NCBI GenBank assembly: GCA_027459745.1
Contig: DAIDHL010000005.1
Coordinates: 646 to 64,645, forward strand
Source of the DNA: Candidatus Levyibacteriota bacterium
GTDB lineage: Bacteria > Patescibacteriota > Microgenomatia > Levybacterales > UBA12049
Length of the DNA: 64,000 nt
Direction of reading: 5' to 3'
Shown here: piece by piece, positions 1 to 13,418 of the stretch
Position numbering within the stretch: the first letter of the stretch is position 1
Layout of the letters: every line of letters starts with the position of its first letter
Program-made: the position numbers and the translations under genes
The notes under the pieces: generated by a model
Told to the model about the DNA's origin: nothing
Database searches by the model: none
The model's input: only the letters and a program-made list of their open reading frames with translations

Positions 1-299
1 TGATCCAAAACTAGTTGATATAAAGTAGCTGGTTTAAAAATTAATTGAATAAGCTCGCTAATATAAGCCATCAGCATGTTATGCTGGAAAAAAATTTGGG
101 TATATAATATCTTTCCTGACAAAAGAAAGTACCCAGCCATAAAATTGTTATATTCATCTATAAAGCTAAATGAAACTGCATTTTTGTAGTATAAATAAGT
201 AATAAAAACAAAAAAGATAGATGAAACTAAATAAAGAACTTTTGAGGTTAAAATGATACGTTCAACTTTTAAAGCCAGGACTTTATGATGAGATAGCAT
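1..299 (-). CDS. Partial hydrophobic membrane protein; the 3' part lies beyond the window start. Its ATG at 299 overlaps the end of the GT2 gene.
   Basis: Minus-strand frame open from ATG (297-299) to position 1 with no stop. Translation MLSHHKVLALKVERIILTSKVLYLVSSIFFVFITYLYYKNAVSFSFIDEYNNFMAGYFLLSGKILYTQIFFQHNMLMAYISELIQLIFKPATLYQLVLD... is strongly hydrophobic. It sits in operon context with glycosylation genes. Start uncertain (an alternative M lies further in). Confidence 0.4.
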   Translation of the reverse strand, partial: MLSHHKVLALKVERIILTSKVLYLVSSIFFVFITYLYYKNAVSFSFIDEYNNFMAGYFLLSGKILYTQIFFQHNMLMAYISELIQLIFKPATLYQLVLD

Positions 300-1224
300 A
301 ACTTCCTTTCCCGAACTTATGCAGATAGAAATCGATTACACCTCTCTTTTGCCAATATCTTCCAGAAAAGAAAATTTTGATACTTTCTCTAAATAAGGCA
401 AATTTTGTTCTTACACCCGCGTACCGGAAACCAAACAACATCCTGTTACGGCTAATAAAATAATCTTGTAGAGTAGAACCTGCTCCACCAGAAGATCCTG
501 CATTTTTATGCCAAAGCACAGCCTGAGGCCAATAAAGAATATTTATTCCTTTTTTATGAGCCTTCATACTATAATCAGCATCCTCATAATACATGAAAAA
601 TTCAGGAGGTAACATGCCTATCTTTTCTATAGTATGTTTAGTAATCAACATACAGCACCCGGTAGCTATTTCAGTTTTGTCCGGCTGATCAAATTGACCT
701 TTATCTACTTGGTCAACTCCCCTATGCGAACCTATAATGTTAGCCCAGTCCATTTTTCCACCTGCATACCAAAAGACTTTACCCTTCTCGATATCGCTAT
801 ATAGGCCTTTATGGTATTCAAAGCCAGGTGCAAAATATATTTTGGGTACTATTATTCCTGCATCATATTCTGATTCTGCTGCCCTTACTAATTCTTCAAT
901 TAAATTTTCGTGGACTATGGTATCGTTGTTTAAAAGCACTACATATCTGCACCCATCAACCAAAGCTTTCTGAATACCAAGATTATTACCAACTGAAAAG
1001 CCCGTATTCTTTTTGCTTTTTATTATATCTGTAGAAAAGACAGTAATAGGATTTTCCTGTAGATATTTCTCAATTTCTTCAATACTTCCCGGACGAGAAT
1101 GATTGTCAACAATATAAACCGTCAAATCTATATCTTTTAAGTTCAGCTTGGCTAAGGATTTTAAACAATCGATTACATTTTTTTCACCGTTATAATTTAT
1201 AGTAATTAATCCGACTTTTTTCAT
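283..1224 (-). CDS. Family 2 glycosyltransferase (GT-A fold; rhamnosyl/galactofuranosyl-transferase-like)
   Basis: 313 aa. N-terminal 'GLITINYNGEKNV...YIVDNHS' and 'LLNNDT' motifs and a DxD-like 'YYEDADYS' are typical GT2 (WbbL-like). 4-bp overlap with the upstream flippase gene. Confidence 0.85.
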   Translation of the reverse strand: MKKVGLITINYNGEKNVIDCLKSLAKLNLKDIDLTVYIVDNHSRPGSIEEIEKYLQENPITVFSTDIIKSKKNTGFSVGNNLGIQKALVDGCRYVVLLNNDTIVHENLIEELVRAAESEYDAGIIVPKIYFAPGFEYHKGLYSDIEKGKVFWYAGGKMDWANIIGSHRGVDQVDKGQFDQPDKTEIATGCCMLITKHTIEKIGMLPPEFFMYYEDADYSMKAHKKGINILYWPQAVLWHKNAGSSGGAGSTLQDYFISRNRMLFGFRYAGVRTKFALFRESIKIFFSGRYWQKRGVIDFYLHKFGKGSYAISS

Positions 1225-2678
1225 ACTTGTTTCTTTATTCTAAGGAAATCTAAAGTTTTTCTCAACTCCTGTTGTGAAATTATAAAAAGAATAGCAGCGT
1301 AGACTCCAACCGCAACACAGGCAAAAAATATAAATAACCAAAAGTTAACTATAAATGATTGTATAATATAAGAGAAAGTCATCATCAAAGCAGCTGCCAA
1401 GAAAGGTTTTATTAATGGTCTCCAAAAAGAATAGCTAACATATTGTTTAGTAAAAGGTAAAATAATAAGTAGACTAGCGGCCACCATAAATGACGCGATC
1501 GAAACTCCATTATATCCAAAATAGTGAATAAATAACGGAGTCAATATCCAGGTAAGTACAGTTAAAAATACCATTGAATAAAGAGTTACTTTTACTTTCC
1601 CTATAGCATTCAAGAAATTTGTTAAAGGAACAGTAATTGAAGCAAACAGAATATTCAATGAAAAAAAGAAAATTGAGATTACAGCTGGAATCCATTTAGT
1701 ATAACCTGGAATAGGAACATATACAATAAAAGCATGTGAGAACATCATAAATCCAATGACCAAGGGGAAAACACATGCAGAAATTAGAAACAATGACTGT
1801 TCAATAATTATTTTTAATGAATTTTTATCATGCTGTAATCTACTATAAGCAGGAAATGTGATACGCACAACATTATCCATAATCAAATTTGAGGGCAAAA
1901 AGGAAAGTTTTTGTGCAAATCCTATAATTCCCACATCACCATGAGAGAGAACTTTTCCAATATAAAGATTAACTAGATTATCTTTAATCAAAGACAGTAA
2001 ACTATTGGCCTGTAGTGGGATACCAAATCCAAACAAATTCTTTACTGTCTTAAAATGAAACGACACTCCAATCTTCCAAGGTTTGATATAGTAAATTACA
2101 AAAAGGCCTATTATACTTCTTGCGAGAATTGCAATACTAAAACTAGTAATTCCAAAGTGCATTAGCGCCAAAACTATTAAGACAACGTTATATACAAGGT
2201 TCTCTACAATATCGGGTATTACCAGTTTGTTGAAAAGCAAATTTCTTTCTAACATAACAGTAGGAATCGTTTTGAGTGAAGATATAAAAAATGAAATAAC
2301 TAAAGAATAAAACAAGAACATTCCTGCGCTATCTAAATGATAAAATCCAACTATCTTACTGGAGAAAACGAAACAAATAATAACCAGCGTCAAAACTAGA
2401 AGTTGTTGAATTGTAAAAGTAGCCTTATATTCTTCTAATGTTGGCTCCTCCTTCTTTTGAATTAAAGAGGCTGCTAAACCAATATCTTGAAAATAAACTA
2501 AAAATACAACAATTGATGATGCTATAAAATAGATACCAAAATCTTCTTTACTTAATATACTAGTTAAAATAAAACTGGTTGCGATACTTAAAACTTTTAC
2601 CAAAAAAGTACGCGAGGTTAACGCGGAAAACCCTTTCAATGATTTACTGGCAACAGCTTGCAGATCAAAATCTTCCAT
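1221..2678 (-). CDS. Polysaccharide biosynthesis protein / lipid-linked oligosaccharide flippase (MOP superfamily, Wzx-like)
   Basis: 485 aa, about 12-14 predicted TM helices, no soluble domains. Position between GT2 genes is typical of Wzx flippases. Confidence 0.65.
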   Translation of the reverse strand: MEDFDLQAVASKSLKGFSALTSRTFLVKVLSIATSFILTSILSKEDFGIYFIASSIVVFLVYFQDIGLAASLIQKKEEPTLEEYKATFTIQQLLVLTLVIICFVFSSKIVGFYHLDSAGMFLFYSLVISFFISSLKTIPTVMLERNLLFNKLVIPDIVENLVYNVVLIVLALMHFGITSFSIAILARSIIGLFVIYYIKPWKIGVSFHFKTVKNLFGFGIPLQANSLLSLIKDNLVNLYIGKVLSHGDVGIIGFAQKLSFLPSNLIMDNVVRITFPAYSRLQHDKNSLKIIIEQSLFLISACVFPLVIGFMMFSHAFIVYVPIPGYTKWIPAVISIFFFSLNILFASITVPLTNFLNAIGKVKVTLYSMVFLTVLTWILTPLFIHYFGYNGVSIASFMVAASLLIILPFTKQYVSYSFWRPLIKPFLAAALMMTFSYIIQSFIVNFWLFIFFACVAVGVYAAILFIISQQELRKTLDFLRIKKQV

Positions 2679-3378
2679 TTTTTAAATCCCACCAGAGAAT
2701 AAGGCTCTCCAGGACCGCCCTTACAACTACTGGGATGTTAGCTCCTGTAGGTTTACCGTGTAGACGCGGATAATGTTCTACACCCACCTGAGTAATTTTT
2801 AATTTTTTTATTGTTGCTTTAGCTAATATTTCAGTAGTAATCATTGCACCTTCTGACCTTAGAGGCATAATTGACTCCAGTGCGCTTTTCCTGAACATTT
2901 TAAAACCACAGTCTATATCTTTAAAATGAAAATGAAACAAAGCAAAATCCCAAATTTTTAACAGGTTCATAAGGAGGTGTCTTACCAACGGATCATTTCT
3001 GTGTTTACGATAACCAATAACCACATCAGAGTTTTGAATTGCAGGTATAAATTTATCAATTTCAGATATATCAAATTGTCCATCTCCATCGGTAAAAACA
3101 ATAAATGTATATTTAGAATTTATAAAACCTTCCTTGAGAGAAGCACCATAGCCTCGATTTGGATGATGAGATACCACTTTTAACCTATTATCTTGAGCTG
3201 ATAATCTTTTAGCAATATCTAAGGTTTTATCCATTGAACCGTCATCTACCATGAGAATCTCCCATTTTATCGCTACTTTATCTGCGACCTTTATGGCTTT
3301 ATTGACAACTTCTTCTATATTTGCTTCTTCATTCCAGAACGGGAAAAAAATTGATAGTTCTGGCAATTTCTTACTCAT
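2665..3378 (-). CDS. GT2 polyprenol-phosphate sugar synthase (DPM1/GtrB/ArnC-like)
   Basis: 237 aa. Motifs 'SIFFPFWNEEANI', 'VDDGSMDKT', 'FTDGDGQFD' and 'DCGFKMFRKSA' characteristic of dolichyl/polyprenyl-phosphate mannose/glucose synthases. Confidence 0.8.
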   Translation of the reverse strand: MSKKLPELSIFFPFWNEEANIEEVVNKAIKVADKVAIKWEILMVDDGSMDKTLDIAKRLSAQDNRLKVVSHHPNRGYGASLKEGFINSKYTFIVFTDGDGQFDISEIDKFIPAIQNSDVVIGYRKHRNDPLVRHLLMNLLKIWDFALFHFHFKDIDCGFKMFRKSALESIMPLRSEGAMITTEILAKATIKKLKITQVGVEHYPRLHGKPTGANIPVVVRAVLESLILWWDLKNGRF

Positions 3379-5069
3379 AAGCTAATGAATATTATACCAG
3401 CAAAAAGAATAATTATTCCAGCTATAGATACGATATCAGACCACGCTTCTACAGATGTTTGGGCATAGAATGCCTCCAACCTGTGTAATCCAACAGGTAA
3501 GTAAACAATTAACCCATTAGCTGCTGGAATATAGGAGATATTCTTGCTATCAATATAGACCTTCCAGTTGGAAAAAGGAGCTATATGCAAGGTAATCGGT
3601 TGTGTAGTTGCAGACTCTATAATTGCTTCAATCGAAGTAGTAGTCTGTTTATAATTTTTTAAAAGAATCTGCCCTTTTGCACTGATAGGATGGTACGCTA
3701 AAGCTTCTTTACTAGAGGAGGGAATTTTTATAATCTTAGGTAAATACTCATAAGAGACTAAAGACGACTGCCACAGCAAATAAGATTCATTTATATAATT
3801 CTGGTCTGTAAAATTATAGTATGTCTGAGGAATAAACAGTTTAGGGTATAAAATTCCTCCTAATAATATAACTACAACAATATATAAGTAACCTACCTTT
3901 AATTTCCAAAAACGCTTATGTAATATTTTCTCAAGGATAAATACTGCCGATCCTCCGATTAAGCTGGAAAAAAATGATGCTAAGATTAAGAATCTCCAAG
4001 GAAATTGAAAAAATTTCATAAAGGGTAACAAATTCCACAACCACTCTGACCAGGAAAGAGTCATAAATAGAGAAAACAGCAATCCTAGAAACAATGCAAT
4101 AAATATGTTGGTATATTTTTTAAATTCTATTTTTTTCCAAAGTATAACTATGAAAAATACAAAAGTTATAACTGATAAAAATAAATGTAATTTACCTACC
4201 CTGAAAGAAAGACCATCAACACATCCGGGTATTGATCCTCCATAACCCCAAGGACTATCCCAAAGCTGTGATAAACAAGCATATTGGGTATGGTAGTCTG
4301 AGCCTCCTTGGGTTACAGAATTCACATTTGTAAGGTTCATTTCTGTAAGAGATGGTAACCAGTAAAATGCTGAGATCAAGAGTGAACAAACTATCGTCAA
4401 AATAAAATAATAAATCATTTTACGGTTGTGGTTATAAAGACTACGAATAATAAATACTAATGACAACAAAAAAATAAACGGAGTAGCCATCAGTGCGGTG
4501 AGATTATGAGTCAAAATTAAAGCTGTATAAAACACTGAACTTAAAACTACATATCTCCATTGCTTAGTTTGACAAAGTTTAATTAAGAAAAAAATTATAA
4601 AAGGTATAAGTGCGTAAGCAAAAGCTTCAGCCATATCACCTCTCACATAAATGTCTAGTGCATGATATGGAGCGTAAACATATAATAACCCCGCTGTTAA
4701 ACCTGCTAAATTATTAAAAAGCTTACTACCTAATAGATACATTCCCAATCCTGACATTAAAACACCTAAAATTATGACGAACTTAACCGAAAAGATAGCA
4801 GACATTCCTCCTAGATATAAAATGCTAGAAAGATAATATATTAAAGGAGAATAAAAATTAAAAAAGGGATATCCATAACCAAAACCTAAATCTTGAGACC
4901 ATCTTACAGGGAACATGCCATCGCTTAAAGCCTTACTCATCTCATATACTCTTTGTACCTGACCATTATCGTGAATTGGGAAAAAACCTTGATGAAATAA
5001 AGGAAGTATCGCCCCAAGCGATAAAATAAACAAGAATAAGATAGTGTAAATTCTAACTTTTACATTCAT
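3375..5069 (-). CDS. Polytopic membrane protein, GT-C-fold glycosyltransferase-like (YfhO/PMT-like); tandem paralog of 5066..6721
   Basis: 564 aa, more than 10 TM helices. N-terminal loop 'GFFPIHDNGQ...WSQDLGFGYGYPFFNFYSPLIYY' parallels the acidic-motif plus aromatic-loop architecture of GT-C enzymes. 4-bp coupled to neighbours. Confidence 0.5.
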   Translation of the reverse strand: MNVKVRIYTILFLFILSLGAILPLFHQGFFPIHDNGQVQRVYEMSKALSDGMFPVRWSQDLGFGYGYPFFNFYSPLIYYLSSILYLGGMSAIFSVKFVIILGVLMSGLGMYLLGSKLFNNLAGLTAGLLYVYAPYHALDIYVRGDMAEAFAYALIPFIIFFLIKLCQTKQWRYVVLSSVFYTALILTHNLTALMATPFIFLLSLVFIIRSLYNHNRKMIYYFILTIVCSLLISAFYWLPSLTEMNLTNVNSVTQGGSDYHTQYACLSQLWDSPWGYGGSIPGCVDGLSFRVGKLHLFLSVITFVFFIVILWKKIEFKKYTNIFIALFLGLLFSLFMTLSWSEWLWNLLPFMKFFQFPWRFLILASFFSSLIGGSAVFILEKILHKRFWKLKVGYLYIVVVILLGGILYPKLFIPQTYYNFTDQNYINESYLLWQSSLVSYEYLPKIIKIPSSSKEALAYHPISAKGQILLKNYKQTTTSIEAIIESATTQPITLHIAPFSNWKVYIDSKNISYIPAANGLIVYLPVGLHRLEAFYAQTSVEAWSDIVSIAGIIILFAGIIFISL

Positions 5070-6721
5070 TTGAAGAACAATTTTTTAATAAAATAAAAAA
5101 TAATGAAAATAAACGAAATCAAACTAATAAGATCTGATATTAAGCGTAATGAGGTTTCTGTAAAAGTACCACTAACCGTATGAATACCTGCAGGTATATT
5201 AATATCCATTAAACCTTTAGGATTACTATATGAGATCTTAGTAGTATTACCGTCAATTTTTGCTACCCATCCAGGATAATAAATAATATTAACTTGCAAC
5301 ATAAAAGGTTTTGTTGAATTGGTATTAACAACAAATCTTCGTGAGTTATAAAATTCATCTGTTAAAAAGACTTTGTTATTTAATGCTGTAAACTTAACCA
5401 CTGGCCTCTGCAATGGTTTTTCTTTTACCCATAGAGGCATATATTCACTGGAAGATGTGGTAGTTGCATCGTTGGTTAAATAAAAATTATCACCTCTGTT
5501 AACATAACTCTGGGGATGAGCATAGGGAATTGTATAAATAATAGTAATTAACCCTAAAATTATATATGCAGGGTAAATTTTTTTAAGAGTAAATAATTTA
5601 GATGAAAGTATAGCGATCAAAAATCCTACAACACCCAGTAATGTCCAGGGATAATTAATTTCTTTAATCAATGGCGTATGCACCCAAATTGCGTTTGTAA
5701 AAGGAAATAGTAATAAGCAATATAAAACCAGAAGTATTGAAGCTATGATTAAGAATTTATCGCTCAACGAGTTTCGTAGAAAATGATTCCGGAATAGAGT
5801 TGTTGCAACAATTAAAAGTAATACTATCAATACTTGAGGTAAGCCTAGCTGAAAAGTAAACTGGTCTGCACTAGGAGGTATACCATATCCCCAAGAAGGT
5901 ATAAATAATTGCCACCAGTGAGCATAATTAATTACCCTGTCAGCAATCGGCGTTACAGCTAATGCAATAAGATTTTTTTCCGACAAAGCAGGAACCCAGA
6001 AGAATGCGGACAATCCAAAACCTAGAACTAAAGTAAAGAAATAAAACAGTGATAATTTTATTCTGTCTTTAACACTTAATAAAATAGAGCAACTCATAAA
6101 CAATAAGATTATAGGTAAAAACTCTACCGCCATTATGTTGTGTGTCGTAATTAAACTGGCAATAAAAATAGCTGCAAAAATTACATAATATAGTCGTCTA
6201 GATTTATGTATTTTAAGAAGAAAATAGATAATAAAAGGGAATAAGGCAAAGGACAGAGATTCACCTATTGATCCCCTTACAAACAAATCTACCATTCGAT
6301 AAGGATAGTACACGTATACAATTGCACTAAAAACACCCGACAATCTACTCTGCCACATTTCTTTTGCCAGCAGGTACATTCCCCACAAAGATAGCGGAAC
6401 TGTAATCGCGAATATCAACTTGATTGAATCAACAAAACTAATTTTAAATAAATGGATGAAAAAACCAAGATAATAAGGTAGCGGATAAGCGAATTCAAAC
6501 AGTGGATATCCATAACCAAAATTCAAGTTAGCACTATATCTGGCTGGGAATTGCAAATCTTTCAATTCTCTATACATGTCTGTAAGTCTCACCACAGCCC
6601 ATTCCCCATCATGAGTCGGGAAATACCCAGCATGGAAATAAGGTAATATCAAAGGAATACTTAACAATATAAATAATATTCCCGTCCAAATTTGAATATG
6701 TTGTGTAAATATTCTTTTCAT
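5066..6721 (-). CDS. Polytopic membrane protein, GT-C-fold glycosyltransferase-like; paralog of 3375..5069
   Basis: 551 aa. 'GYFPTHDGEW...NLNFGYGYPLFEFAYPLPYY' closely parallels the N-terminal loop of the neighbouring gene. Many TM helices. Confidence 0.5.
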   Translation of the reverse strand: MKRIFTQHIQIWTGILFILLSIPLILPYFHAGYFPTHDGEWAVVRLTDMYRELKDLQFPARYSANLNFGYGYPLFEFAYPLPYYLGFFIHLFKISFVDSIKLIFAITVPLSLWGMYLLAKEMWQSRLSGVFSAIVYVYYPYRMVDLFVRGSIGESLSFALFPFIIYFLLKIHKSRRLYYVIFAAIFIASLITTHNIMAVEFLPIILLFMSCSILLSVKDRIKLSLFYFFTLVLGFGLSAFFWVPALSEKNLIALAVTPIADRVINYAHWWQLFIPSWGYGIPPSADQFTFQLGLPQVLIVLLLIVATTLFRNHFLRNSLSDKFLIIASILLVLYCLLLFPFTNAIWVHTPLIKEINYPWTLLGVVGFLIAILSSKLFTLKKIYPAYIILGLITIIYTIPYAHPQSYVNRGDNFYLTNDATTTSSSEYMPLWVKEKPLQRPVVKFTALNNKVFLTDEFYNSRRFVVNTNSTKPFMLQVNIIYYPGWVAKIDGNTTKISYSNPKGLMDINIPAGIHTVSGTFTETSLRLISDLISLISFIFIIFYFIKKLFFK

Positions 6722-6728: not shown

Positions 6729-8429
6729 CTATTGTGAAATTACACTGACTACAGGTTTAGTATATGGATATTGAGCTATATTATTCTGTAGTGACAGTAC
6801 GACAGGCCTAGTAGGATAGTAAAAAGTTTTAATAACATGTATATTTGCTGGTACGTCAGAACTAGCTGCAACTAATAAATTATGCTTATCTTTCACGTCC
6901 TTAGACCAATCAATTTTACGAAACTGATATTTTCCTAAACTTTCTACTGAGGTAAAAAGACTATCCTGTTGATATATAACTTCCTTTTGAAAAGATTTTG
7001 GAGAGTATTTTTGATAAAAAGCCAGTGATGTATATATAAACGGTGTATTGGTGTCTATTATAATATGTGAATAATTAGGAGCCACAGATTGTAGGTATAA
7101 GGACAAGGGTTTATCAGTCACTCTCCATTCCGCTGCATAATATTTGGGAAATCTATAATAATAAGACGCTTGAAAATATAAAAATGAGTAAACCACAATT
7201 ATAGAAACTAATATTATAAATAACCTTAAGTAGGTTTTGTTGATTTTACTCAATAAACCAATTAATACATAAAATCCGTAAGCTGAAAAGAAAATGAGAG
7301 GTATTACTAGCGGATAACTCCTGGTTCCGTGTGGAACTACAGAGCTAAAACCAACGATTAAAATTAAAATTGCTGCCCAGGAAAAAAAAATCATTGCCGA
7401 CTTAGTCACTTTTCTTGAAAGAAAATATAAACCTACTATCATAAAAAATAGATCAACCGGATAAAAAGCTCCCACATTACCCACTCCTACATCTCCATTA
7501 GTTGAACCTAAAGAATAGAAAAAAAATGTGGTTGAGAATGAGTTTGCAATGTTTCTGCAGTACTCCCAAATCAATAAGAAAAAACTATTAAAAAACAAGG
7601 CTGATAATATATGGGGCAAAGGAGTTAAATAACTTCTCATTTCAACCATTGCCGCTTTAGCATTTCCCCCCAGTAGAGTTACGTTTGTCTCATTATGTAA
7701 ACCAGAAGATTTAAAGAAAGTAAAAATAAACGGGGAAATCAGTATTAAAAAAACAATGCCCAATGAGAAAATTTTTGCGAGACTAAGTTCTTTAAATTGT
7801 TTTCTATAAATAACTACTAATGATAACAATAATAAAGGAGCATGAAATCTAGTGATGTTGTAAGAATACAATGCAATCACAAAAGCTACAACTGAAAAAA
7901 GATAAAATATTAACCTCTTTTTTTCAGCAGCGAGAACAAAAAATAATGTTCCTAAGACCTCAAAACATACTGCCAGATTTACTTCAAGTGCAACACGAGA
8001 GAAAAAAAGATTCCAAGGATTTATAGCTAAAAATAAAGCACCTATCAAGGCTAACCATTCGTTTCTGGTTAATAATTTTATTAAAAAATAAAACGCAAAT
8101 ACTGTTACAACCCCTGCTAAAGCGGAAGGAAAGCGTACCGCAAAAGTATTTACACCCAAAATACTCTCACTTATAACAGTAGTATAAATATATGCAGGCA
8201 ATTTATAATCATTAAATGATTTAAAGTACAATGGAAACTTGACTCCATGTTCGTCTCTACCTGTTTGAAGTATTGAGTAGGCGTTATAACCAATTGCTGT
8301 TTCATCCTGATTCATTCCAGCAGGAAAATTAGACAAGTTATTAAATCTTAAAAGGATGGCTATAATCACAACTATTAAAAAAAGAATTAACACTAACTTT
8401 TTTTGGTGATTTAATATAAGTGGAAGCAT
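6729..8429 (-). CDS. GT-C glycosyltransferase, ArnT/PMT family (GT39/GT83-like)
   Basis: 566 aa. First extracytoplasmic loop 'GMNQDETAIGYNAYSILQTGRDEHGVKFPLYFKSFNDYKLPAYIY' carries the DE motif and aromatic loop typical of dolichyl/undecaprenyl-phosphate-sugar dependent GT-C transferases. 11+ TM helices. Confidence 0.75.
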   Translation of the reverse strand: MLPLILNHQKKLVLILFLIVVIIAILLRFNNLSNFPAGMNQDETAIGYNAYSILQTGRDEHGVKFPLYFKSFNDYKLPAYIYTTVISESILGVNTFAVRFPSALAGVVTVFAFYFLIKLLTRNEWLALIGALFLAINPWNLFFSRVALEVNLAVCFEVLGTLFFVLAAEKKRLIFYLFSVVAFVIALYSYNITRFHAPLLLLSLVVIYRKQFKELSLAKIFSLGIVFLILISPFIFTFFKSSGLHNETNVTLLGGNAKAAMVEMRSYLTPLPHILSALFFNSFFLLIWEYCRNIANSFSTTFFFYSLGSTNGDVGVGNVGAFYPVDLFFMIVGLYFLSRKVTKSAMIFFSWAAILILIVGFSSVVPHGTRSYPLVIPLIFFSAYGFYVLIGLLSKINKTYLRLFIILVSIIVVYSFLYFQASYYYRFPKYYAAEWRVTDKPLSLYLQSVAPNYSHIIIDTNTPFIYTSLAFYQKYSPKSFQKEVIYQQDSLFTSVESLGKYQFRKIDWSKDVKDKHNLLVAASSDVPANIHVIKTFYYPTRPVVLSLQNNIAQYPYTKPVVSVISQ

Positions 8430-8435: not shown

Positions 8436-9977
8436 TTAAGGTAAGACTTTGTATAATGTTGCATGAACCTTACCATTATTTTTACTTACACTGTAAACTG
8501 GTATAACCGGCCAAGCAGTGGGAGCTACACCAGTGTTAGGACAATTTGGGCACGGCTCATAAAAATAAACATAGGTTGGCATCTTTTTGGCCATTGACTG
8601 CAAATCTGAGGGAATATTCCCAGAAATAGGCCAGTAAGCTTTGGTGGTAACATTAGGGTTATTATAGAAATACATTTCAAACGCAAATGGCATCAAACCA
8701 AAAGTTCCCTGTGTGCCAACAAATATGTGCTGATTTGCTGAAGCAGTTTTTAAATACTGAATTGACTCTTTTATTCCCCACCCTGCAGGCCAATCTAGCA
8801 TATATTGAGATTTATCAGCTTGGGGTATGGGTGCTTTTAATGGGTCAACAATTAAATAAAAACTGATATAGGCTGTAGGAGTAATCGCAACTAGTGTTAT
8901 CATCGATAGGTATATGGCAAGTTTTTTAGTTTTTTCATGAGATAATATTAAAGCACTACGCCAGATTCCAAATGCCACTATTGGCAGCAACACTACAGTC
9001 ATGAATAAAATGTACCTGGGAAATATAACTTTTCCAAACGTGGCATCAAAAATAAATGGTGCTAAAAAGTAAATCACTAGTACGGTTTTTTCTCTCCAAT
9101 AAGATATAGTTAACAGGCCAATTACTAAAAATACTAAATAGCTTATATTGAAGTATTCTAAAAACCAGGAGATTAATGATTGTAGATTGCCGGTAAACAA
9201 TTGAAATCTCCACAAAAGGGTATGCCCCATCCAGTCTTTTAATGTATAAATAAATACTGTATCTTTCAAACCTATTGTTCCATATAACGGAGACAAACGC
9301 AAAATAGAATAGAACATCATCCCTATTACTACAGATATCAAACCAAGAGTAATTAATCTAAATATTTTAAACTTTACTTGGTTTTGTTTAAAGTCAAAAA
9401 GCACAAATAAAAATGGCAGTAAAGCCATACTGATAAATGCACCTGCTTTGGTAAGTGCACCTCCACCTAATATAAAACCTAGATTATAACTATTTTTTAG
9501 ATTTGCTTTATTAAATAAAACTACTGAAAAATATAATGCCCAAACATACCACATGGCAGAAAGACTATCTTCTATGGCTAGACGATCATGTAGCAATGCA
9601 AGCGGGTAAAAAATGTATAACAACGAGCTAATTAACGCAACTTTTATATTCTTAAATATTCCATAAGCTAAAAACCCAACTCCTGCCATACCAAAAAAAC
9701 CACTAAAAACAGAGGATAGTCTTCCGGCTAGCAAGGGATCTTGGATGAACTTTACAAACAACATCATAATCCAGGTTTGCATAGGAGGCTTTCCATCGGT
9801 TAAAGAAATGAAACGCCAACTAGAATCGTGTAAAGCCACTTGCGCCCAACGTATATAAATAGCTTCGTCAGTAAAAATAGGTAATTTGGTTAGGAATAAC
9901 AGCCTGGTTAGAAAGTATACAATTACTATCAACAGACCAAGGAGTATATTAAATTTATGCTTCATAATTAATCTCAT
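8436..9977 (-). CDS. GT-C glycosyltransferase, ArnT/PMT family (GT39/GT83-like)
   Basis: 513 aa. 'LPIFTDEAIYIRWAQ' DE motif in the first loop after TM1. Polytopic. Confidence 0.75.
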   Translation of the reverse strand: MRLIMKHKFNILLGLLIVIVYFLTRLLFLTKLPIFTDEAIYIRWAQVALHDSSWRFISLTDGKPPMQTWIMMLFVKFIQDPLLAGRLSSVFSGFFGMAGVGFLAYGIFKNIKVALISSLLYIFYPLALLHDRLAIEDSLSAMWYVWALYFSVVLFNKANLKNSYNLGFILGGGALTKAGAFISMALLPFLFVLFDFKQNQVKFKIFRLITLGLISVVIGMMFYSILRLSPLYGTIGLKDTVFIYTLKDWMGHTLLWRFQLFTGNLQSLISWFLEYFNISYLVFLVIGLLTISYWREKTVLVIYFLAPFIFDATFGKVIFPRYILFMTVVLLPIVAFGIWRSALILSHEKTKKLAIYLSMITLVAITPTAYISFYLIVDPLKAPIPQADKSQYMLDWPAGWGIKESIQYLKTASANQHIFVGTQGTFGLMPFAFEMYFYNNPNVTTKAYWPISGNIPSDLQSMAKKMPTYVYFYEPCPNCPNTGVAPTAWPVIPVYSVSKNNGKVHATLYKVLP

Positions 9978-10063
9978 GGTTTGATTATAAATTCAAACAA
10001 CAATATTAGCAAATGATAGAACATCTCATTGGTATTTCTGAATTCATGAGGTAAAATAGCAAT

Positions 10064-11401
10064 ATGAAGATAAAAAAAGATAAAAAATCACAAACGCAAC
10101 TATCATGGATCAAATCTATAAAAGACCAACTTCTTCACCACAAAAGTGAAGTTATCATCTTCCTGTTATTGTTGATTGTCTTTATTTTTCTGAGATCTTA
10201 TCAGCTTGAATCTAGAATGTCATTTAACTTTGATCAAGTAAATGGAGCCTGGATGGCGAAAGATGCGTTAGTAGATCATCATTGGCCTCTTACTGGTCCA
10301 GTTGCCAAGCAGAATTCGGGCTTCTCTATGGCACCACTCTACTATTATATTTTGATTCCTTTTTATTTTGTCTTTAATTTGCACCCTATCGCTTCAGGAA
10401 TCGCAGCTGTTTTTATAAGTACTCTTACCTTCTTAAGTATATTTTTTGTGATTAAATACTTATTTAATACAAAGGTTGCCCTGATCGCAGCTTATATCGA
10501 TTTGGTATCCGTTTACATCATAAACTCTGACAAAATTGACTGGAATGCGGGATTAACTGTTTTGACTTCCGCTTTAACCTTCTTCTTTCTTTATAAAGTT
10601 CTCGTCGGGAAAACGAGAATGATTATTCCGTTGTTCTTAACTTTAGGCTTTTCTCTCAGCGGAGATTTTACCAATATTTTCTACTTTTTTATAGTATCAG
10701 TATGTATTCCCTTTTTCCCTAAAAGAAAAGAGACTCTATTATATCTAATTTTGGGGGTAATAATTATTATGTTATTGATTAGCCCCGTTTTGGTATCTGA
10801 CATCATTAGTCGTAAAGGTGAAGGAACTAATGCTCTTTCGTATTTGGGAACTTATTATCATGGTTTCCATTTAACCAGATTTTTACAGCTCAGAAGAGAT
10901 GCATTCATTGAATTCGTCATGTTTTTTGGTAACGACTTCGTGAGTTATTTCGATTTTCTTCTTCCTTTAATTTTTGGGTTTCTATATTATCGTCAGAATA
11001 AAAATAGAGAAGCAATTATCCTCTCCGTATTATCTATTTTATGGTTTTTTATACCTTGGATCGTATTTACTGCCTATAGCGGAGAGATTACTAACTATTA
11101 TTTTTATATGACTCGTCCAATTATACTTATGATTCTCGCTTACTTCACTTATAGACTTTTCCTTACACGTAAAATAATTATTATGACCTGTGTTTTACTT
11201 TTTTGGGGATATTTTACTGTTAATAATTTACTAAATTTTTTTCAAGAACATCCCGGGAATGATTTTTACAATGCCAAACAAATAATAACACCCGAGGTTA
11301 ATGCACATAATACTAGTGTCAGACATATATACTCTACACCAGAATCTTATCTACAATTTTATTATGAAGACTATAAAAATTTCAACTTAAAAGACAATTA
11401 A
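10064..11401 (+). CDS. Polytopic membrane protein, GT-C-like with DQ in place of the DE motif; paralog of 40034..41371
   Basis: 445 aa. 'FNFDQVNGAWMAKDALVDHHWPLTGPVAKQNSGFSMAPLYYY' loop and conserved C-terminal 'YYHGFHL...YSGEITNYY' blocks are shared with the 40034 paralog. Confidence 0.5.
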   Translation: MKIKKDKKSQTQLSWIKSIKDQLLHHKSEVIIFLLLLIVFIFLRSYQLESRMSFNFDQVNGAWMAKDALVDHHWPLTGPVAKQNSGFSMAPLYYYILIPFYFVFNLHPIASGIAAVFISTLTFLSIFFVIKYLFNTKVALIAAYIDLVSVYIINSDKIDWNAGLTVLTSALTFFFLYKVLVGKTRMIIPLFLTLGFSLSGDFTNIFYFFIVSVCIPFFPKRKETLLYLILGVIIIMLLISPVLVSDIISRKGEGTNALSYLGTYYHGFHLTRFLQLRRDAFIEFVMFFGNDFVSYFDFLLPLIFGFLYYRQNKNREAIILSVLSILWFFIPWIVFTAYSGEITNYYFYMTRPIILMILAYFTYRLFLTRKIIIMTCVLLFWGYFTVNNLLNFFQEHPGNDFYNAKQIITPEVNAHNTSVRHIYSTPESYLQFYYEDYKNFNLKDN

Positions 11402-12654
11402 ATCTTTCTTGATAAATTATAGACTTGTTTAAGAATATATAATCCTCCTATGATACTTGCCACTAGCATTCCGTACTTATACATTAATTCCTGATCGGTA
11501 AACCAAAAAGAGTTCCATTCGCCAGTAAATAGATAGGGCAAATAAGTTAATTGAGAAATAAGAGTTAGAAGTATAATCAAACCTTTGAGATATTTACTTT
11601 TAACTAAAGGCACAAAGGTTATTATATACATTAGATACCAGGGCTGAAATTCGGTACGAAAAATTGCCAGAGTTATAGCCCCTATCATTAATACAATCAT
11701 CATATTGAATAGATAATCTGGGATTGCATCCTTATTTCTTTTTTGTAATATATATACCCAGATAAATATAGGCAACAATATAATAGTGGCATATTTTATC
11801 AATGCAGAAGCTATTAGTAATAATATAGCCCACCAAAATTTCTTACTAATAAGTAGATAAAAACCCAACACCGCGAAAAACATCATAACTATATCATTAT
11901 GACTAGAGACAAGAGATTCGAAAATAACTAGTGGATTTAATGCAAAAAGAACTATTCCTTGAAGTTTCTTTGATGCGTAAATTTTATCTAGTATTTTATA
12001 AAGATAAAAAACAGTTCCCAAATAGGATGCAGTCATCAGGATTTTAAAAAGATAAAAAGTCAAGATAAATATATGCAAGCCCACAAAAGAAAATGGCAAT
12101 GTTATTAGCAACCATAATGGTCCATAAGCCTGTGCGTATGTCCTATTTGTCCAACGCATAAAGCCCAACATAGGGTCATGCGGAAAGTCCTGCGCCTTAT
12201 GTAAATAAGGGTTTTGATGATAATAAGTCAGAATTTTGGCATCGAAGATATAATTAAATAAATCATAAGACAACATGTTATAGGAAAAAGTCAAAATTAT
12301 AGCTGCTAATCCAATAATACCGGCGATTACAGGGAATGAAACTCGTTTTAAATGGACAAGTCTTAATGTATATAAATATAAACTGAAGAAAATCAAGACT
12401 GTCAGAGAAAATAAAAATGTGGATAATGGTCGGTTAAAATAACCGATATATTGGAAGCCCCGTTCAATTGTATATAACCAGGATATTCTACTAATCACTA
12501 ATCCCAGATCTGCTTGCGTATAGCTTAAAAGTAAAATTAGAGTAAAAAAAATTCCCCAGCTTGAAGTAATAATCTTCTCTTTTTTTGTTCCTTGCTTGTA
12601 TACAAATGCCAAGTTAGTAAATAATAATTTGAAGGGAGAAAGAATTATATTCAC
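11398..12654 (-). CDS. Polytopic membrane protein, putative GT-C / DUF2029(GT87)-like glycosyltransferase
   Basis: 418 aa. 'DFPHDPMLGF...YAQAYGPLWLL' acidic and aromatic loop motif. Converges with 4-bp overlap on 10064..11401. Confidence 0.45.
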   Translation of the reverse strand: MNIILSPFKLLFTNLAFVYKQGTKKEKIITSSWGIFFTLILLLSYTQADLGLVISRISWLYTIERGFQYIGYFNRPLSTFLFSLTVLIFFSLYLYTLRLVHLKRVSFPVIAGIIGLAAIILTFSYNMLSYDLFNYIFDAKILTYYHQNPYLHKAQDFPHDPMLGFMRWTNRTYAQAYGPLWLLITLPFSFVGLHIFILTFYLFKILMTASYLGTVFYLYKILDKIYASKKLQGIVLFALNPLVIFESLVSSHNDIVMMFFAVLGFYLLISKKFWWAILLLIASALIKYATIILLPIFIWVYILQKRNKDAIPDYLFNMMIVLMIGAITLAIFRTEFQPWYLMYIITFVPLVKSKYLKGLIILLTLISQLTYLPYLFTGEWNSFWFTDQELMYKYGMLVASIIGGLYILKQVYNLSRKI

Positions 12655-12659
12655 ATTAT

Positions 12660-13418
12660 TTATTTATAAATGCCAGAAATAATATTCTTTTTGATTACTA
12701 ATAAGTCTATAAATCCGGCTATTGAACTACGCAAGGGACTGACTCTTCGTGTTTCTACGTGCAACCAACGAACAGGTACCTCTTTAATTTTATAACCCAT
12801 TTTTTTTGCTAGATACAAGACTTCCATGTCCATACCAGCTGATACATTAGAACCTGAGACATTTTTGAAACCATCATGTATCTGAAAGAACTTGGTAAAA
12901 AGCTGCTGCGCAACATTGTGACTAAACATTTTAAAGCCACACTGTGTATCAACGATTTCGGGTAGACCTATTAACATTTTTCGTAAAATTACCGTGGCTT
13001 TAGATACAAATTTGCGTGTCCAAGGAGCTCCCTGCCTTTGATTACTTCGGGATCCAATAACTACATCGTAACCATCTTTTGTAAAAGGAAAAAACTTATT
13101 CACTTCTTCAATTGGGGTAGCTTGATCCATATCAGTAAATAAAATATAGTCTCCTTTAGCTGCTAAGACTCCGGCTGTTACAGCCCCAGCTTTACCACTG
13201 TGCTGATTTTTGATCAGAATAAAATTATCATTCTGTTTGATAAAATCTTCTATAAATTCTACACTACCATCTTTGGAACCATCATCTACGACAATGACTT
13301 CATAATAAAACTTTGCCTTATCTAGAAAATGCTGTACTTTATCGAGGACTCCTTTTTGTAGATTGGACATCTCATCGTAACATGGAATGACAACTGAGAG
13401 ATAAATATTTTCTTTCAC
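12660..13418 (-). CDS. GT2 polyprenol-phosphate sugar synthase (GtrB/DPM1-like)
   Basis: 252 aa. 'LSVVIPCYDEMSNL', 'VVDDGSKDGS', 'FTDMDQATP' and 'TQCGFKMFSHN' motifs. Confidence 0.8.
   Translation of the reverse strand: MKENIYLSVVIPCYDEMSNLQKGVLDKVQHFLDKAKFYYEVIVVDDGSKDGSVEFIEDFIKQNDNFILIKNQHSGKAGAVTAGVLAAKGDYILFTDMDQATPIEEVNKFFPFTKDGYDVVIGSRSNQRQGAPWTRKFVSKATVILRKMLIGLPEIVDTQCGFKMFSHNVAQQLFTKFFQIHDGFKNVSGSNVSAGMDMEVLYLAKKMGYKIKEVPVRWLHVETRRVSPLRSSIAGFIDLLVIKKNIISGIYK

Follow-up and report, generated by a model that had tools for sequence, protein, structure and literature searches.

What would an ultra-small CPR bacterium build with half a dozen membrane enzymes encoded side by side, and which acceptor would receive the sugars? 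The question is raised by a block of genes near the left end of a 64,000-nucleotide stretch of Levybacteria DNA (the window), in which positions 283 to 13,418 encode six polytopic proteins of the GT-C type together with three GT2 enzymes and a single MOP flippase of the Wzx type. This block is part of a Levybacteria operon crowded with membrane enzymes, whose most likely role is to assemble or modify a sugar polymer of the cell surface on the far side of the membrane. The kinds of component are already known; an arrangement of such density has no prior description.

Organization of the locus

The block comprises ten complete ORFs, whose ends overlap by 4–14 nt or are separated by gaps of 5–7 nt, except that G7 and G8 diverge from an intergenic region of 86 bp (Table 1). 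A preliminary description of this DNA placed the whole block on one strand, which holds for nine of the complete genes but not for G8. The six polytopic proteins are indeed consecutive (3375–12,654), with 8–11 hydrophobic segments apiece, and every motif quoted in that description is found in the translations: HDNGQ, HDGEW, DE (twice), DQ and HDP, together with CGFKMF in both short GT2 enzymes. The block is truncated by the window edge, where a further polytopic gene (G0p) starts at 299 and continues past the left end.

Promoter-like sites are present in the G7/G8 intergenic region on the minus strand (10,012–9984, TTGCTA-17-TATAAT) and on the plus strand (10,029–10,057), and the minus-strand operon might restart there; overall, promoter-like sites are no more numerous in this region than in shuffled sequences. 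The best site of the region precedes the G10 start by 7 nt and could be the operon promoter.

Table 1. Features of the putative glycan locus and its surroundings in the window
Feature	Position	Strand	Description and evidence
G0p	1..299	-	Polytopic; first 99 codons of about 530 aa, runs off the window; read from sequence
G1	283..1224	-	Soluble GT2, rhamnosyltransferase-like, 313 aa; Glycos_transf_2 E 1.6e-17
G2	1221..2678	-	Wzx-type MOP flippase, 485 aa, 12 hydrophobic segments; Polysacc_synt_3 E 7.8e-50
G3	2665..3378	-	Short GT2 without TM segment, 237 aa; Glycos_transf_2 E 6.4e-24
G4	3375..5069	-	PTPS_related (PF10131)/YfhO-like GT-C, 564 aa; PTPS_related above Pfam gathering score
G5	5066..6721	-	PTPS_related/YfhO-like GT-C, 551 aa, conserved D38-G39; tandem paralogue of G4
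G6	6729..8429	-	PMT/PMT_2-type GT-C, 566 aa, D42-E43 after TM1, variable cassette; PMT_2 and PMT
G7	8436..9977	-	PMT_2-type GT-C, 513 aa, conserved T36-D37-E38, core gene; PMT_2 E 1.9e-8
Divergent intergenic region	9978..10063		86 bp, between G7 and G8
G8	10064..11401	+	Compact GT-C, 445 aa, without large soluble domain; homologues with PMT_2 and fold match
G9	11398..12654	-	MptA/MptB-like (GT87-related) GT-C, 418 aa, core gene; TIGR03459, GT87, PF26314 in orthologues
G10	12660..13418	-	Second short GT2 without TM segment, 252 aa, first gene of the locus; Glycos_transf_2 E 6.1e-26
Best promoter-like site	13425..13453	-	ATGACA-17-TATAAT, 11/12; consensus match only
tRNA-Glu	13549..13622	+	Just past the putative operon promoter
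Paralogue of G8	40034..41371	+	445 aa, unlinked, outside the block; PMT_2 E 1.5e-9

GT2 enzymes and the flippase

Profile searches bear out the three GT2 enzymes and the MOP flippase of the preliminary description, the former matching Pfam Glycos_transf_2 with E-values from 1e-17 to 6e-26. G1 also matches the TIGR01556 rhamnosyltransferase model (E 3.6e-16), far under the cut-off of that model; no TM segment is predicted in it and it is presumed to be a glycan-building enzyme at the cytoplasmic face. In addition to the match given in Table 1, G2 is detected by Polysacc_synt (E 2.8e-22) and by the NCBIfam models for MOP flippases (NF007773, E 7.6e-41), the O-glycosylation Wzx (E 1.1e-33) and TuaB (E 5e-26), in each case under the equivalog cut-off.

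The two short GT2 enzymes are related to each other (30% identity, E 3.5e-18). G3 has near full-length NCBIfam matches to PgfS, AglJ, ArnC and PpgS, the best being PgfS (E 2.8e-19) followed by AglJ (E 1.9e-17), and its top PDB matches are ArnC (1.4e-14), the Pyrococcus DPM synthase (5.6e-13) and GtrB (9.5e-9). G10 matches ArnC NF007986 (E 5e-20) and PgfS (3e-18) in NCBIfam and, in PDB, GtrB sll0501 (2e-17), the Pyrococcus DPM synthase (9e-15) and ArnC (2e-14). The residues C157-G158-F159-K160-F162 of G3 are at least 90% conserved in 60 orthologues, and Q159-C160-G161-F162-K163 of G10 are conserved among its orthologues. For each protein, all seven top-ranking PDB entries are ArnC, Pyrococcus DPM synthase or GtrB, and the proposed likeness to polyprenyl-phosphate-sugar synthases stands. 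However, their description as GtrB-like has to be qualified, for both lack the membrane anchor found in GtrB, ArnC and CsbB. No GacJ- or DPM3-like partner and no GtrA-type flippase is encoded at the locus, where there is no room for a small anchor or partner gene because the genes abut. The flippase that is present is of the Wzx type and not, as in the three-component GtrA/B/C systems, of the GtrA type.

Membrane glycosyltransferases of the GT-C type

Three of the six polytopic proteins, which had been proposed to share the GT-C architecture, score above Pfam gathering thresholds: G4 (PTPS_related), G6 (PMT_2 and PMT) and G7 (PMT_2). G5 is assigned by paralogy, G8 by homologues carrying PMT_2 and by an ArnT/STT3 fold, and G9 by sub-threshold GT87 and TIGR03459 matches and by PF26314. 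The acidic residue of the motif is at least 90% conserved among orthologues in every case (H33-D34, D38-G39, D42-E43, D37-E38, D57-Q58 and D160-P161 in G4 to G9, respectively). The motifs regarded earlier as variants are family-specific and conserved within each family, rather than decayed sites.

In G4, an invariant H33-D34 follows TM1, an extracytoplasmic β-sandwich spans residues 460–535 approximately and a TM helix closes the C-terminus. G5 is 29% identical to it over 547 residues (E 7e-68), and its own PTPS_related match (E 1.1e-5, 24.6 bits) falls slightly below the gathering score. By hhalign, G5 is linked to G4 with a probability of 100 and to YfhO with 99.7, and both proteins reach YfhO with values above 99.

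G6 matches PMT_2 with an E-value of 3e-10 (41 bits, threshold 26.1) and PMT (PF02366) with 2.9e-7 (30.7 bits, threshold 22.7), and at least 90% of 52 sequences keep its D42 and E43; G7 attains 35.1 bits against the same PMT_2 threshold of 26.1. The hhalign probability between G7 and the G6 family is 99.6, and the links among G6, G7 and G8 range from 96 to 99.6. Scans of G8 against Pfam and NCBIfam gave no match of its own, but PF13231 (PMT_2) is present in most of its listed homologues. Its AF2 model (pLDDT 86, pTM 0.88) finds ArnT 5f15 first in Foldseek (E 8e-7), followed by STT3, AglB, ALG9/12, Pmt and AftB; its D57 and Q58 do not vary among 38 sequences. The unlinked paralogue of G8 is 36% identical to it over the full length (E 4e-84).

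G9 matches TIGR03459, alpha-(1->6)-mannopyranosyltransferase A, with 48 bits where the cut-off is 439 (E 6.8e-13), and GT87 with 22.9 bits, below the threshold of 25 (E 8e-5), while its orthologues carry PF26314 (MptA_B_family). In its loop after TM3, D131, D138 and D156 are conserved beside the Asp of D160-P161 (the HDP motif), so that any of them may be the catalytic residue.

G0p is a candidate seventh GT-C enzyme. Its ATG overlaps the stop of G1 by 17 nt, the motif F-I-D-E-Y-N-N-F follows TM1, and the fragment shares 74% identity with the N-terminal part of P0242; a full-length orthologue is found at L004:14772-16364. The family has 64 homologues with an invariant Asp, for which no matching Pfam domain is precomputed, one of them carrying the unrelated PF13493 (DUF4118). 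By hhalign it aligns with the G6 family over 391 columns (probability 80.6%, E 1.3e-5), DE against DE; comparisons with A1, A2 and PDB gave nothing significant.

Conservation in Levybacteria

The same arrangement is seen in 80 independent loci, nearly all of them from Levybacteria/Patescibacteria records, a recurrence far beyond chance. Identity to G4 across these loci is 37–51%, with one exception at 73%, and in GCA_027459725.1 the ten genes are colinear with 73–90% protein identity. Among the 37 loci with full flanks, there are 4–9 GT-C genes (median 7 per 21.6 kb) and the central GT-C cassette is variable. G4 and G2 are found in all 37, G7 in 35, G9, G5, YfhO and G1 in 34 each, GT1 in 32 and G6 in 21, whereas G8 lies inside the locus in only one. 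The genus-specific additions are G8, on the plus strand, and the left-edge gene. Hence it was misleading to call the system massively expanded here, as a locus with several GT-C genes is a conserved feature of Levybacteria.

Two adjacencies are fixed, that of G9 with a short GT2 (G10) and that of the G5–G4 pair with a short GT2 (G3) and then the flippase. The G5–G4 tandem is kept in 68 of the 80 loci, followed in 65 of these by the short GT2 and the flippase; G10, G9 and G7 are adjacent in 33 loci and in 16 more that are interrupted by contig ends. A Lon protease gene is a recurrent upstream neighbour, indicating that the chromosomal neighbourhood is conserved. A Wzy-type protein occurs in one of the 80 loci. 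No priming phosphoglycosyltransferase (Bac_transf, Glycos_transf_4), LCP ligase or NDP-sugar gene appears in the window, in the unknown ORFs inside the cluster or among the 25 commonest of 87 flanking families.

Comparison with known systems

The GtrABC, CsbB-YfhO and Ppm1-PMT systems invoked in the preliminary description are a reasonable comparison. In GacI/J/K/L, the GT-A enzyme has no TM segment and acts jointly with a flippase of the Wzx type and a GT-C of the PMT_2 type, and L. lactis csdAB/CD/EF consist of paired GT-A/GT-C genes (PMC8035078). Together with CsbB-GtcA-YfhO and GtlA/GtlB, these systems likewise combine a GT-A synthase, a flippase and a YfhO/PMT_2 GT-C working at the outer face (PMC8035078, PMC5836110). 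However, the Gram-positive systems have one GT-C each, while the Levybacteria locus groups 7–9 GT-C genes and two synthases in a single operon, without a GtrA-type flippase or GacJ-like anchor; no teichoic-acid or rhamnan backbone genes are seen at the locus. The GtrA/GtrB/Gtr* seroconversion and GT136 pentofuranose systems share the logic of donor synthase, flippase and GT-C (PMC11127046), but their cassettes hold only three genes, are often carried by phages and pair a flippase of the GtrA or MATE kind with a GtrB anchored in the membrane, whereas the locus described here is chromosomal, lineage-wide and multi-enzyme.

The lipomannan/LAM/arabinogalactan set of Corynebacterineae (Ppm1; PimE, MptB, MptA, MptC/D; Emb/Aft GT-C) is also comparable. 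Its mycobacterial genes are scattered and not grouped in one operon, G9 reaches only a small part of the MptA equivalog cut-off, no phosphatidylinositol-mannoside genes were identified at the locus, and the host is a CPR bacterium of about 1 Mb in which a mycomembrane is not known. Another parallel is the Agl pathway of S-layer N-glycosylation in Haloferax volcanii, with the GT2 enzymes AglJ and AglD, Wzx-like AglR, AglS and AglB. In this pathway GT2 enzymes form dolichyl-phosphate-hexose, the Wzx-like flippase is implicated in the transport of polyprenyl-phosphate monosaccharides, and membrane transferases take part as well. G3 matches AglJ, but the present locus is bacterial, encodes no STT3/AglB orthologue with the WWDYG motif and contains far more GT-C enzymes.

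Proposed assembly line and alternative explanations

The region makes up the right-hand two thirds of an operon that is conserved on the chromosome of Levybacteria and that, on balance, probably serves the assembly and decoration of an extracytoplasmic glycan. As judged from their homology to ArnC, GtrB and DPM synthase, G3 and G10 would load two different sugars onto polyprenyl phosphate at the cytoplasmic face. Soluble GT2/GT1 enzymes, namely G1 and two to four others encoded further left in relatives, would assemble a lipid-linked primer or oligosaccharide, and G2 would carry the lipid-linked sugar(s) to the outer face. There, enzymes whose family and fold are those of GT-C transferases would pass sugars from polyprenyl-phosphate donors to the growing acceptor. 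The core would comprise G9, G7, G5 and G4, while G6, G8 and G0 would form the variable cassette, setting lineage-specific branching; YfhO-type enzymes are encoded beyond the window edge. Judging by which genes are neighbours, there could be two donor/transferase modules, G10 with G9 (and perhaps G7) and G3 with G4/G5, with one common flippase. The most likely acceptor is a glycopolymer of the cell envelope or a lipoglycan anchored in the membrane, which would have parallels in lipomannan/LAM assembly in Corynebacterineae and in the decoration of rhamnose-polysaccharides and teichoic acids in Firmicutes. The MptA/MptB match of G9 and a GT87-like domain fused to a PBP pedestal (MecA_N plus PBP_dimer) in one relative hint at an acceptor of this kind or in the cell wall. 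As all NCBIfam matches are far below equivalog cut-offs, they specify neither the sugars nor the linkages.

A rather unlikely, though serious, explanation is protein O-glycosylation, in which the flipped products of G3 and G10 would serve PMT-like G6, G7, G8 and possibly others to modify secreted proteins (S-layer proteins, pilins or giant adhesins, for instance) on Ser/Thr, as in Ppm1/Pmt of Actinobacteria or Pgf of Streptococcus mutans. The PMT score of G6, the DE motif conserved after TM1 in G6 and G7, the PgfS and AglJ matches of G3 and the O-glycosylation Wzx match of G2 are all consistent with it, as are the very large secreted-looking proteins encoded in the same window. However, those NCBIfam matches are far below their cut-offs, and PMT_2 acceptors are not protein-specific, since GacL, GtlB, CsdD/F and ArnT modify polysaccharides, teichoic acids and lipid A (PMC8035078). 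The giant proteins lie 40 kb away and nothing was found that ties the locus to them; no conserved candidate substrate gene adjoins it. Moreover, MptA/B-like G9, YfhO-like G4/G5 and four to five cytoplasmic glycosyltransferases better fit polymer building. For at least G6 a protein acceptor is equally compatible because it passes the Pfam threshold of protein O-mannosyltransferases, and both activities may coexist. It is improbable that the locus works in an Agl- or PglB-like manner, with GT2/GT1 enzymes building a polyprenyl-linked oligosaccharide, Wzx flipping it, G4/G5 with their STT3-like fold transferring it en bloc to a surface (S-layer) protein and the other GT-C enzymes adding the last sugars from polyprenyl-phosphate donors, as Haloferax AglS and AglR do.

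That the block is an island of recent acquisition or confined to this strain, received by horizontal transfer and amplified on the spot, is very doubtful. Its GC content is 31–34.5% compared with 34–44% in most of the remaining window, a tRNA gene flanks it, and G8 and the left-edge gene belong to the locus only in the source genus. This explanation is nevertheless contradicted by the census of loci and by the recurrent Lon neighbour; no integrase or transposase is present inside or beside the block in the window, and a low GC content is expected where codons for Phe, Ile, Leu, Tyr and Asn are frequent. Least credible is that the polytopic proteins are O-antigen ligases/polymerases, transporters or other membrane proteins with coincidental acidic motifs. 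Pfam gives no direct match for G8 or the left-edge protein, G5 and G9 fall narrowly below Pfam gathering scores, and no polytopic protein has a sequence-level PDB match. However, this idea is largely refuted by the three proteins above GT-C thresholds and by the motif Asp conserved in every family. None of the polytopic proteins matches Wzy_C, which the same kind of scan detected in a control ORF (L064), and hhalign of each GT-C family against the MOP flippase control gives probabilities below 4%.

The PTPS_related family

PF10131 (PTPS_related) is a member of clan CL0111 and is listed with function unknown (PMC7801869); no characterised member was found in the literature searched. G4 is an above-threshold member and G5 its paralogue. 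To this family the locus adds a confident GT-C model, with top structural matches, as for G8, solely to GT-C enzymes, as well as a profile link to YfhO and a conserved genomic context.

Organization of the gene block

The block at 283-13418 contains ten complete ORFs (G1-G10, numbered from left to right), whose adjoining ends overlap by 4-14 nt or lie 5-7 nt apart. This tight packing is broken by a divergent gap of 86 bp (9978-10063) and by two genes that overlap tail to tail (11398-11401). Pfam and NCBIfam searches bore out the tally of the preliminary description, namely three family 2 glycosyltransferases (GT2, of the GT-A type), one flippase and six polytopic proteins, and all the motifs quoted there are present in the translations. 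The genes that it listed in 1-13418 are thus real, and one further gene, that of the left-edge protein, had been missed. Nor is this a block of a single strand, as had been stated, since G8 is encoded on the opposite one.

Coordinates and profile-based assignment of the genes discussed
Gene	Position	Strand	Assignment
Left-edge gene	ATG at 299, overlapping the G1 stop; runs off the left window edge	-	Read from the sequence
G1	283-1224	-	Soluble GT2, rhamnosyltransferase-like (Pfam/NCBIfam)
G2	1221-2678	-	MOP/Wzx flippase; Polysacc_synt_3 E 8e-50, MOP flippase model E 8e-41; 12 segments
G3	2665-3378	-	Short GT2
G4	3375-5069	-	PTPS_related (PF10131), over gathering score
G5	5066-6721	-	PTPS_related, slightly under gathering score
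G6	6729-8429	-	PMT_2 and PMT, each over threshold
G7	8436-9977	-	PMT_2, over threshold
G8	10064-11401	+	No Pfam/NCBIfam match
G9	11398-12654	-	GT87 slightly under threshold; TIGR03459 (MptA-type) E 7e-13
G10	12660-13418	-	Short GT2
Giant ORFs	53173-63923	-	1823 aa, seven Laminin_G_3 repeats and DUF2341; 1745 aa, no significant Pfam match

A scan for promoters and terminators gave totals not above those of shuffled sequence. The promoter-like sites ahead of G10, G7 and G8 are consensus matches that are not more frequent in the region than in shuffled sequence, and the two well-placed ones are to be taken as putative. The block has a lower GC content (31-34.5%), as would be expected of AT-rich membrane-protein genes.

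The six polytopic proteins

By crude hydropathy estimates, each of the six polytopic proteins (G4-G9) contains 8-11 hydrophobic segments, a YfhO relative contains 13 and the three GT2 proteins none. An acidic residue that is invariant or at least 90% conserved is located right after the first transmembrane segment (TM1) of G4 (H33-D34), G5 (D38-G39), G6 (D42-E43), G7 (D37-E38) and G8 (D57-Q58). Since each family keeps its Asp, the "DQ", "HDN" and "HDG" forms of the motif are stable family signatures and not decayed sites. In G9 the conserved acidic residues (D131, D138, D156 and D160-P161) come later, in the loop that follows hydrophobic segment three, so that the topology and catalytic residue of this protein are only provisionally placed.

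The assignment of all six proteins to the GT-C fold (polytopic membrane glycosyltransferases, Pfam clan CL0111) is directly supported by profiles for G4 (PTPS_related, 41.6 bits, threshold 26.4), G6 (PMT_2, 41.0 bits, threshold 26.1; PMT, PF02366, 30.7 bits, threshold 22.7) and G7 (PMT_2 as its only match, 35.1 bits, threshold 26.1). G5 (PTPS_related, 24.6 bits, threshold 26.4) and G9 (GT87, 22.9 bits, threshold 25) remain slightly under the cut-off, and the Pfam scan of G8 itself gave no match. These gaps would be closed indirectly. G5 is paralogous to G4 (29% identity, E 7e-68), the 200 homologues of G8 at E ≤ 1e-3 mostly carry PF13231 (PMT_2), the named ones being Levybacteria or Patescibacteria, and the orthologues of G9 have precomputed matches to PF26314 (MptA_B_family).

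PDB searches with single GT-C sequences and with family profiles yielded nothing significant. Because the six polytopic proteins have no sequence match to a solved structure, family context and fold comparison were used, and their link to solved GT-C enzymes is by fold comparison only. Predicted structures cover two of them, G4 and G8, both of which are helical bundles according to DSSP and show three-dimensional similarity to solved GT-C enzymes. The G8 AlphaFold model (pLDDT 86, pTM 0.88) retrieves ArnT with Foldseek (E 8e-7), followed by STT3, AglB, ALG9/12, Pmt and AftB, and the top 38 Foldseek matches of the G4 model (pLDDT 85, pTM 0.89) are exclusively GT-C enzymes. The homologues of G4 are PF10131 proteins, among which weak YfhO, PMT_2 or STT3 co-hits are common. 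Pfam classifies PF10131 within the GT-C clan, as a family of unknown function (PMC7801869).

Profile-profile comparison of the family alignments connects G4 and G5 to YfhO (probabilities of 99.2 and 99.7), G6 to G7 (99.6), G6 and G7 to G8 (97.4 and 95.9), and G4 and G5 to G6 (92 and 96); the connection of G6 to G9 is weaker (77). With the MOP flippase as negative control, each GT-C family scored below 4%. The opposite possibility, that these proteins are O-antigen ligases, polymerases or transporters, had been named in the preliminary description as the finding that would overturn the GT-C assignment. It is rejected, given these flippase values and the lack of any Wzy_C match in the ten block proteins, the positive control (L064:14194-15294, + strand, in a related locus) being detected at E 2e-16. 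That control ORF is the only Wzy_C gene seen in the 80 related loci; it comes directly behind the flippase gene, and its locus is truncated by a contig end. The use of lipid-phosphate-linked sugars as donors by the GT-C proteins of the block is predicted.

The left-edge protein is a probable distant GT-C and thus a candidate member of this group. Its family comprises 64 homologues, every named one belonging to Patescibacteria, and no Pfam domain fitting the family was found among them (one homologue carries an unrelated DUF4118). An invariant Asp is present in an F-x-D-E-x-N-N-F motif directly after TM1. Comparisons with the G8 family, the G4 family and the PDB gave nothing significant; a probability of this order was reached only in the hhalign alignment with the G6-type family (80.6%, E 1.3e-5, 391 columns), in which DE falls on DE.

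The short GT2 proteins and the flippase

The seven best PDB matches of both G3 and G10 are to polyprenyl-phosphate glycosyltransferases, namely ArnC, the Pyrococcus dolichyl-phosphate-mannose (DPM) synthase and GtrB sll0501 (E 1e-8 to 2e-17). NCBIfam alignments to AglJ, ArnC, PgfS and PpgS extend over nearly the full length of G3 (residues ~8-210 of 237 for AglJ, ArnC and PpgS). G3 and G10 are paralogous (E 3.5e-18) and the CGFK-F motif is kept in their orthologues. Because all matches are far below the equivalog cut-offs, both proteins are assigned to the polyprenyl-phosphate-sugar synthases without a specific sugar.

G3 and G10 (237 and 252 aa) have no hydrophobic segment, whereas their solved relatives (320-374 aa) are membrane-anchored. 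Neither TM helices of their own nor a GacJ/DPM3-like partner was found, and the abutting genes leave no room for a small membrane ORF. Contact with the membrane might be provided by a partner encoded elsewhere or by amphipathic-helix binding. No ORF for a small (3-4 TM) flippase of the GtrA family is present in 1-13418, where G2, a Wzx-type MOP protein with 12 segments, is the sole flippase candidate.

Conservation of the locus in Levybacteria

The named homologues of the block proteins are from Candidatus Levybacteria/Levyibacteriota and "Patescibacteria group". The identical ten-gene order, including the inverted G8, is found in contig DAIDHK010000002.1 of GCA_027459725.1. Between the window and this relative (L004), the closest one, the cytoplasmic proteins G1, G2, G3 and G10 share 87-90% identity and all six GT-C proteins 73-80%; the outward-facing enzymes seem to evolve faster than the components of the cytoplasmic face. 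In GCA_027459725.1 the locus continues to the left of G1 with five more genes, coding for a 530-aa orthologue of the left-edge protein, a GT2, a GT1, a 744-aa YfhO and a GT2, which indicates that the window cuts the locus. Its left extension is deduced from this 73-90% identical relative and from a census of related loci.

The census, a pattern scan for the G4 family with one genome per species, gave at least 536 relatives, and 80 loci were kept. Their ORFs were annotated against the window proteins and labelled by the best phmmer match, so the G3-like and G10-like labels interchange. The recurrent order begins with a short GT2 (G10), the MptA/B-like protein (G9), PMT_2 (G7) and a variable set of YfhO, PMT-like, PTPS-like or GT87-like genes. 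It continues with the PTPS_related pair (G5, G4), a short GT2 (G3) and the MOP flippase (G2), and ends with GT2, G1, GT2, an optional YfhO, GT1 and YfhO. Additional polytopic ORFs that occupy the variable slot belong to the GT87 or PMT_2 type.

The 37 loci with full 10-kb flanks contain 4-9 GT-C genes (median 7). All 37 have G4 and G2; G7 is found in 35, each of G9, G5, YfhO and G1 in 34, GT1 in 32, G6 in 21, the left-edge family in two and G8 in one. The succession of G5, G4, a short GT2 and the flippase is kept in 65/80 loci. A short GT2 before G9, with G7 after it, is seen in 33 loci, 16 further ones being cut by contig ends. A Lon protease recurs upstream in relatives, its counterpart in the window being at 21538-23910. 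The locus is vertically inherited within the lineage, and its GT-C cassette varies. A mobile or strain-specific island is rejected given the gene order common to the 80 loci and the recurrence of Lon upstream, and the expansion first noticed in this genome is not peculiar to it.

G8 is a plus-strand relative, within the block, of an unlinked PMT_2 GT-C of exactly 445 aa (40034-41371, + strand; 36% identity, E 4e-84), and probably arose from the widespread Levybacteria family of the latter. In many records entitled "uncultured Gammaproteobacteria bacterium" (L005, L008-L010, L012 and others), a locus of the Levybacteria type is present, with unchanged synteny and 38-51% identity; the organism named on these MAG records seems to be a placeholder or erroneous. 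About ten related loci contain, between a GT2 and the G1-type gene, an ORF of ~210-230 aa (for instance L015:9584-10261, L026:14823-15500 and L035:14867-15523, plus seven other loci). Its copies are 34-62% identical and it is absent from the window; the first member had no Pfam match, and among the 30 ORFs scanned there was no Pfam family shared by two or more. Just past tRNA-Glu, two ORFs without Pfam match (13723-14619, - strand, 298 aa; 14687-15247, + strand, 186 aa) are barely conserved in the closest relative, which has an AAA ATPase/DUF4143 gene and a PIN toxin module instead. The region beyond tRNA-Glu is a variable junction beside the conserved locus.

Proposed pathway and acceptor

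The pathway proposed here is built on the observed family and fold assignments, the operon-like gene packing and the conserved order and adjacencies. G3 and G10 would load two sugars onto polyprenyl phosphate at the inner face of the membrane, and G1, together with neighbouring GT2/GT1 enzymes, would make a lipid-linked primer. One or more lipid-linked species would be translocated by G2 and, at the outer face, the GT-C enzymes would pass sugars to the growing acceptor. Adjacency suggests two modules, one of G10 with G9 (or G9 and G7) and another of G3 with G4/G5.

The favoured acceptor is a cell-envelope glycopolymer or lipoglycan, because the many successive GT-C enzymes, accompanied by cytoplasmic glycosyltransferases, recall LM/LAM synthesis, in which Ppm1 supplies the donor and MptA/B/C/D are GT-C enzymes (PMC3485146, PMC3123699). 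The MptA/B-like nature of G9 points in the same direction: this protein can be considered a homologue of MptA/MptB, functional equivalence not being implied, since it matches TIGR03459 with E 6.8e-13, yet with 48 bits against a cut-off of 439 bits. A further reason is the predicted beta-sandwich of G4, which has a carbohydrate-binding-module-like fold; the glycan-acting GT-C enzymes EmbC, AftD and GT136 carry domains of this kind (PMC11127046). In addition, a protein of one relative (L029:19080-21158, + strand) joins a GT87-like polytopic domain to the two domains that form the pedestal in class B penicillin-binding proteins, MecA_N and PBP_dimer. This fusion hints that some GT-C enzymes of the locus may act at or near peptidoglycan.

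Protein O-glycosylation, which may coexist with glycopolymer synthesis, is a serious rival because of the PMT match of G6 and of the genes that a glycopolymer pathway lacks here. G6 is the only block protein that combines a PMT profile match with a conserved DE motif in loop 1. No block protein matches the MIR domain; as bacterial Pmt enzymes are not known to carry MIR either, a protein O-mannosyltransferase function is compatible with this result. Genes for a priming phosphoglycosyltransferase, an LCP ligase, Wzy, a GtrA-type flippase or sugar-nucleotide synthesis were found neither in the window, nor among the intra-cluster ORFs of unknown function, nor among the 25 most frequent of 87 flanking families, and no synthase membrane anchor was found in or beside the loci. 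The giant proteins, which the preliminary description regarded as possible targets, show no linkage: they are 40 kb away and no comparable gene is kept beside the locus in relatives. An STT3-like role of the G4/G5 pair in en bloc transfer is less likely. No window protein matches the STT3 profile at E ≤ 0.01, the WWD of the WWDYG motif is absent from both sequences, the fold of G4 is no closer to STT3 than to AftD, ArnT or Pmt4, and the nearest sequence family is YfhO; STT3 membership is therefore rejected.

If a cell-envelope glycopolymer or lipoglycan is the acceptor, a more ambitious joint reading can be formulated, which we hold to be improbable as a whole. According to it, about 2% of a Levybacteria genome of roughly 1 Mb would be devoted to an operon-encoded assembly line of 7-9 GT-C enzymes, working wholly outside the membrane, that builds and branches a lineage-specific lipoglycan or wall heteroglycan from just two polyprenyl-phosphate sugars. 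The PTPS_related G5/G4 pair would be an obligatory heterodimer, the Wzx protein would flip polyprenyl-monophosphate sugars, the left-edge protein would represent a new GT-C family restricted to Patescibacteria, and the variable cassette would be a surface code for episymbiotic host recognition or phage evasion. Such a system would be an independent and compact counterpart of mycobacterial LM/LAM/arabinogalactan synthesis.

Relation to known systems

Every component is a member or look-alike of a known family, and the logic is that of three- or multi-component transmembrane glycosylation. For instance, the paired GT-A/GT-C genes of Lactococcus (csdAB, csdCD and csdEF) resemble the G10-G9 and G3-G4/G5 adjacencies, and GacI-J-K-L offers a precedent in which a GT-A devoid of TM segments is combined with a Wzx-type flippase and a PMT_2 GT-C (PMC8035078). 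Three-component Gtr systems differ in having a GtrA-type flippase instead of the Wzx-type G2. The distinctive features are the presence of two TM-less synthases, one Wzx and 7-9 GT-C genes in a single conserved operon, a host from a CPR lineage with a very small genome, and the participation of PF10131 and the Pfam-less left-edge family, both of them uncharacterised. Since the individual components are of known kinds, what makes the locus interesting is the system and the organism; the mechanism itself is unsurprising.

CPR/Patescibacteria are abundant and mostly uncultured bacteria with tiny genomes, whose cultivated members are attached to other microbes. To our knowledge, essentially nothing is known about their surface chemistry. 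No account of such loci emerged from searches of the literature on glycosyltransferases (GT-C and mannosyltransferases included) or teichoic polymers in Patescibacteria, CPR or Levybacteria. A conserved operon of at least 21 kb, with two lipid-sugar synthases, a flippase and 4-9 GT-C genes (median 7), is a heavy lineage-wide investment that points to an elaborate extracellular glycan. It provides a testable lead for CPR surface biology, as it names enzymes for donor and acceptor assays. For PF10131, the model gives a confident GT-C fold, the profiles tie it to YfhO and the locus places it in a genomic context; the polytopic left-edge family is flagged as a possible new GT-C family. The fixed core can be told apart from the variable cassette, which could be compared with host range or phage pressure.

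Other genes in the window

The gene for a 773-aa polytopic processive GT2 similar to chitin/cellulose synthases (Glyco_trans_2_3, E 1e-36) overlaps the one directly behind it, which encodes a protein of 526 aa carrying GH18 plus two CBM_5_12 modules (34637-38535, + strand). This is a possible pair for synthesis and remodelling of a chitin-like polymer in a CPR genome. A 131-aa protein (19881-20276, - strand) contains a eukaryote-type RNA recognition motif (RRM_1, E 3e-24). The 528-aa product of 30374-31960 (- strand) contains GLUG motifs and a C-terminal LysM domain, an architecture that points to a peptidoglycan-binding surface protein.
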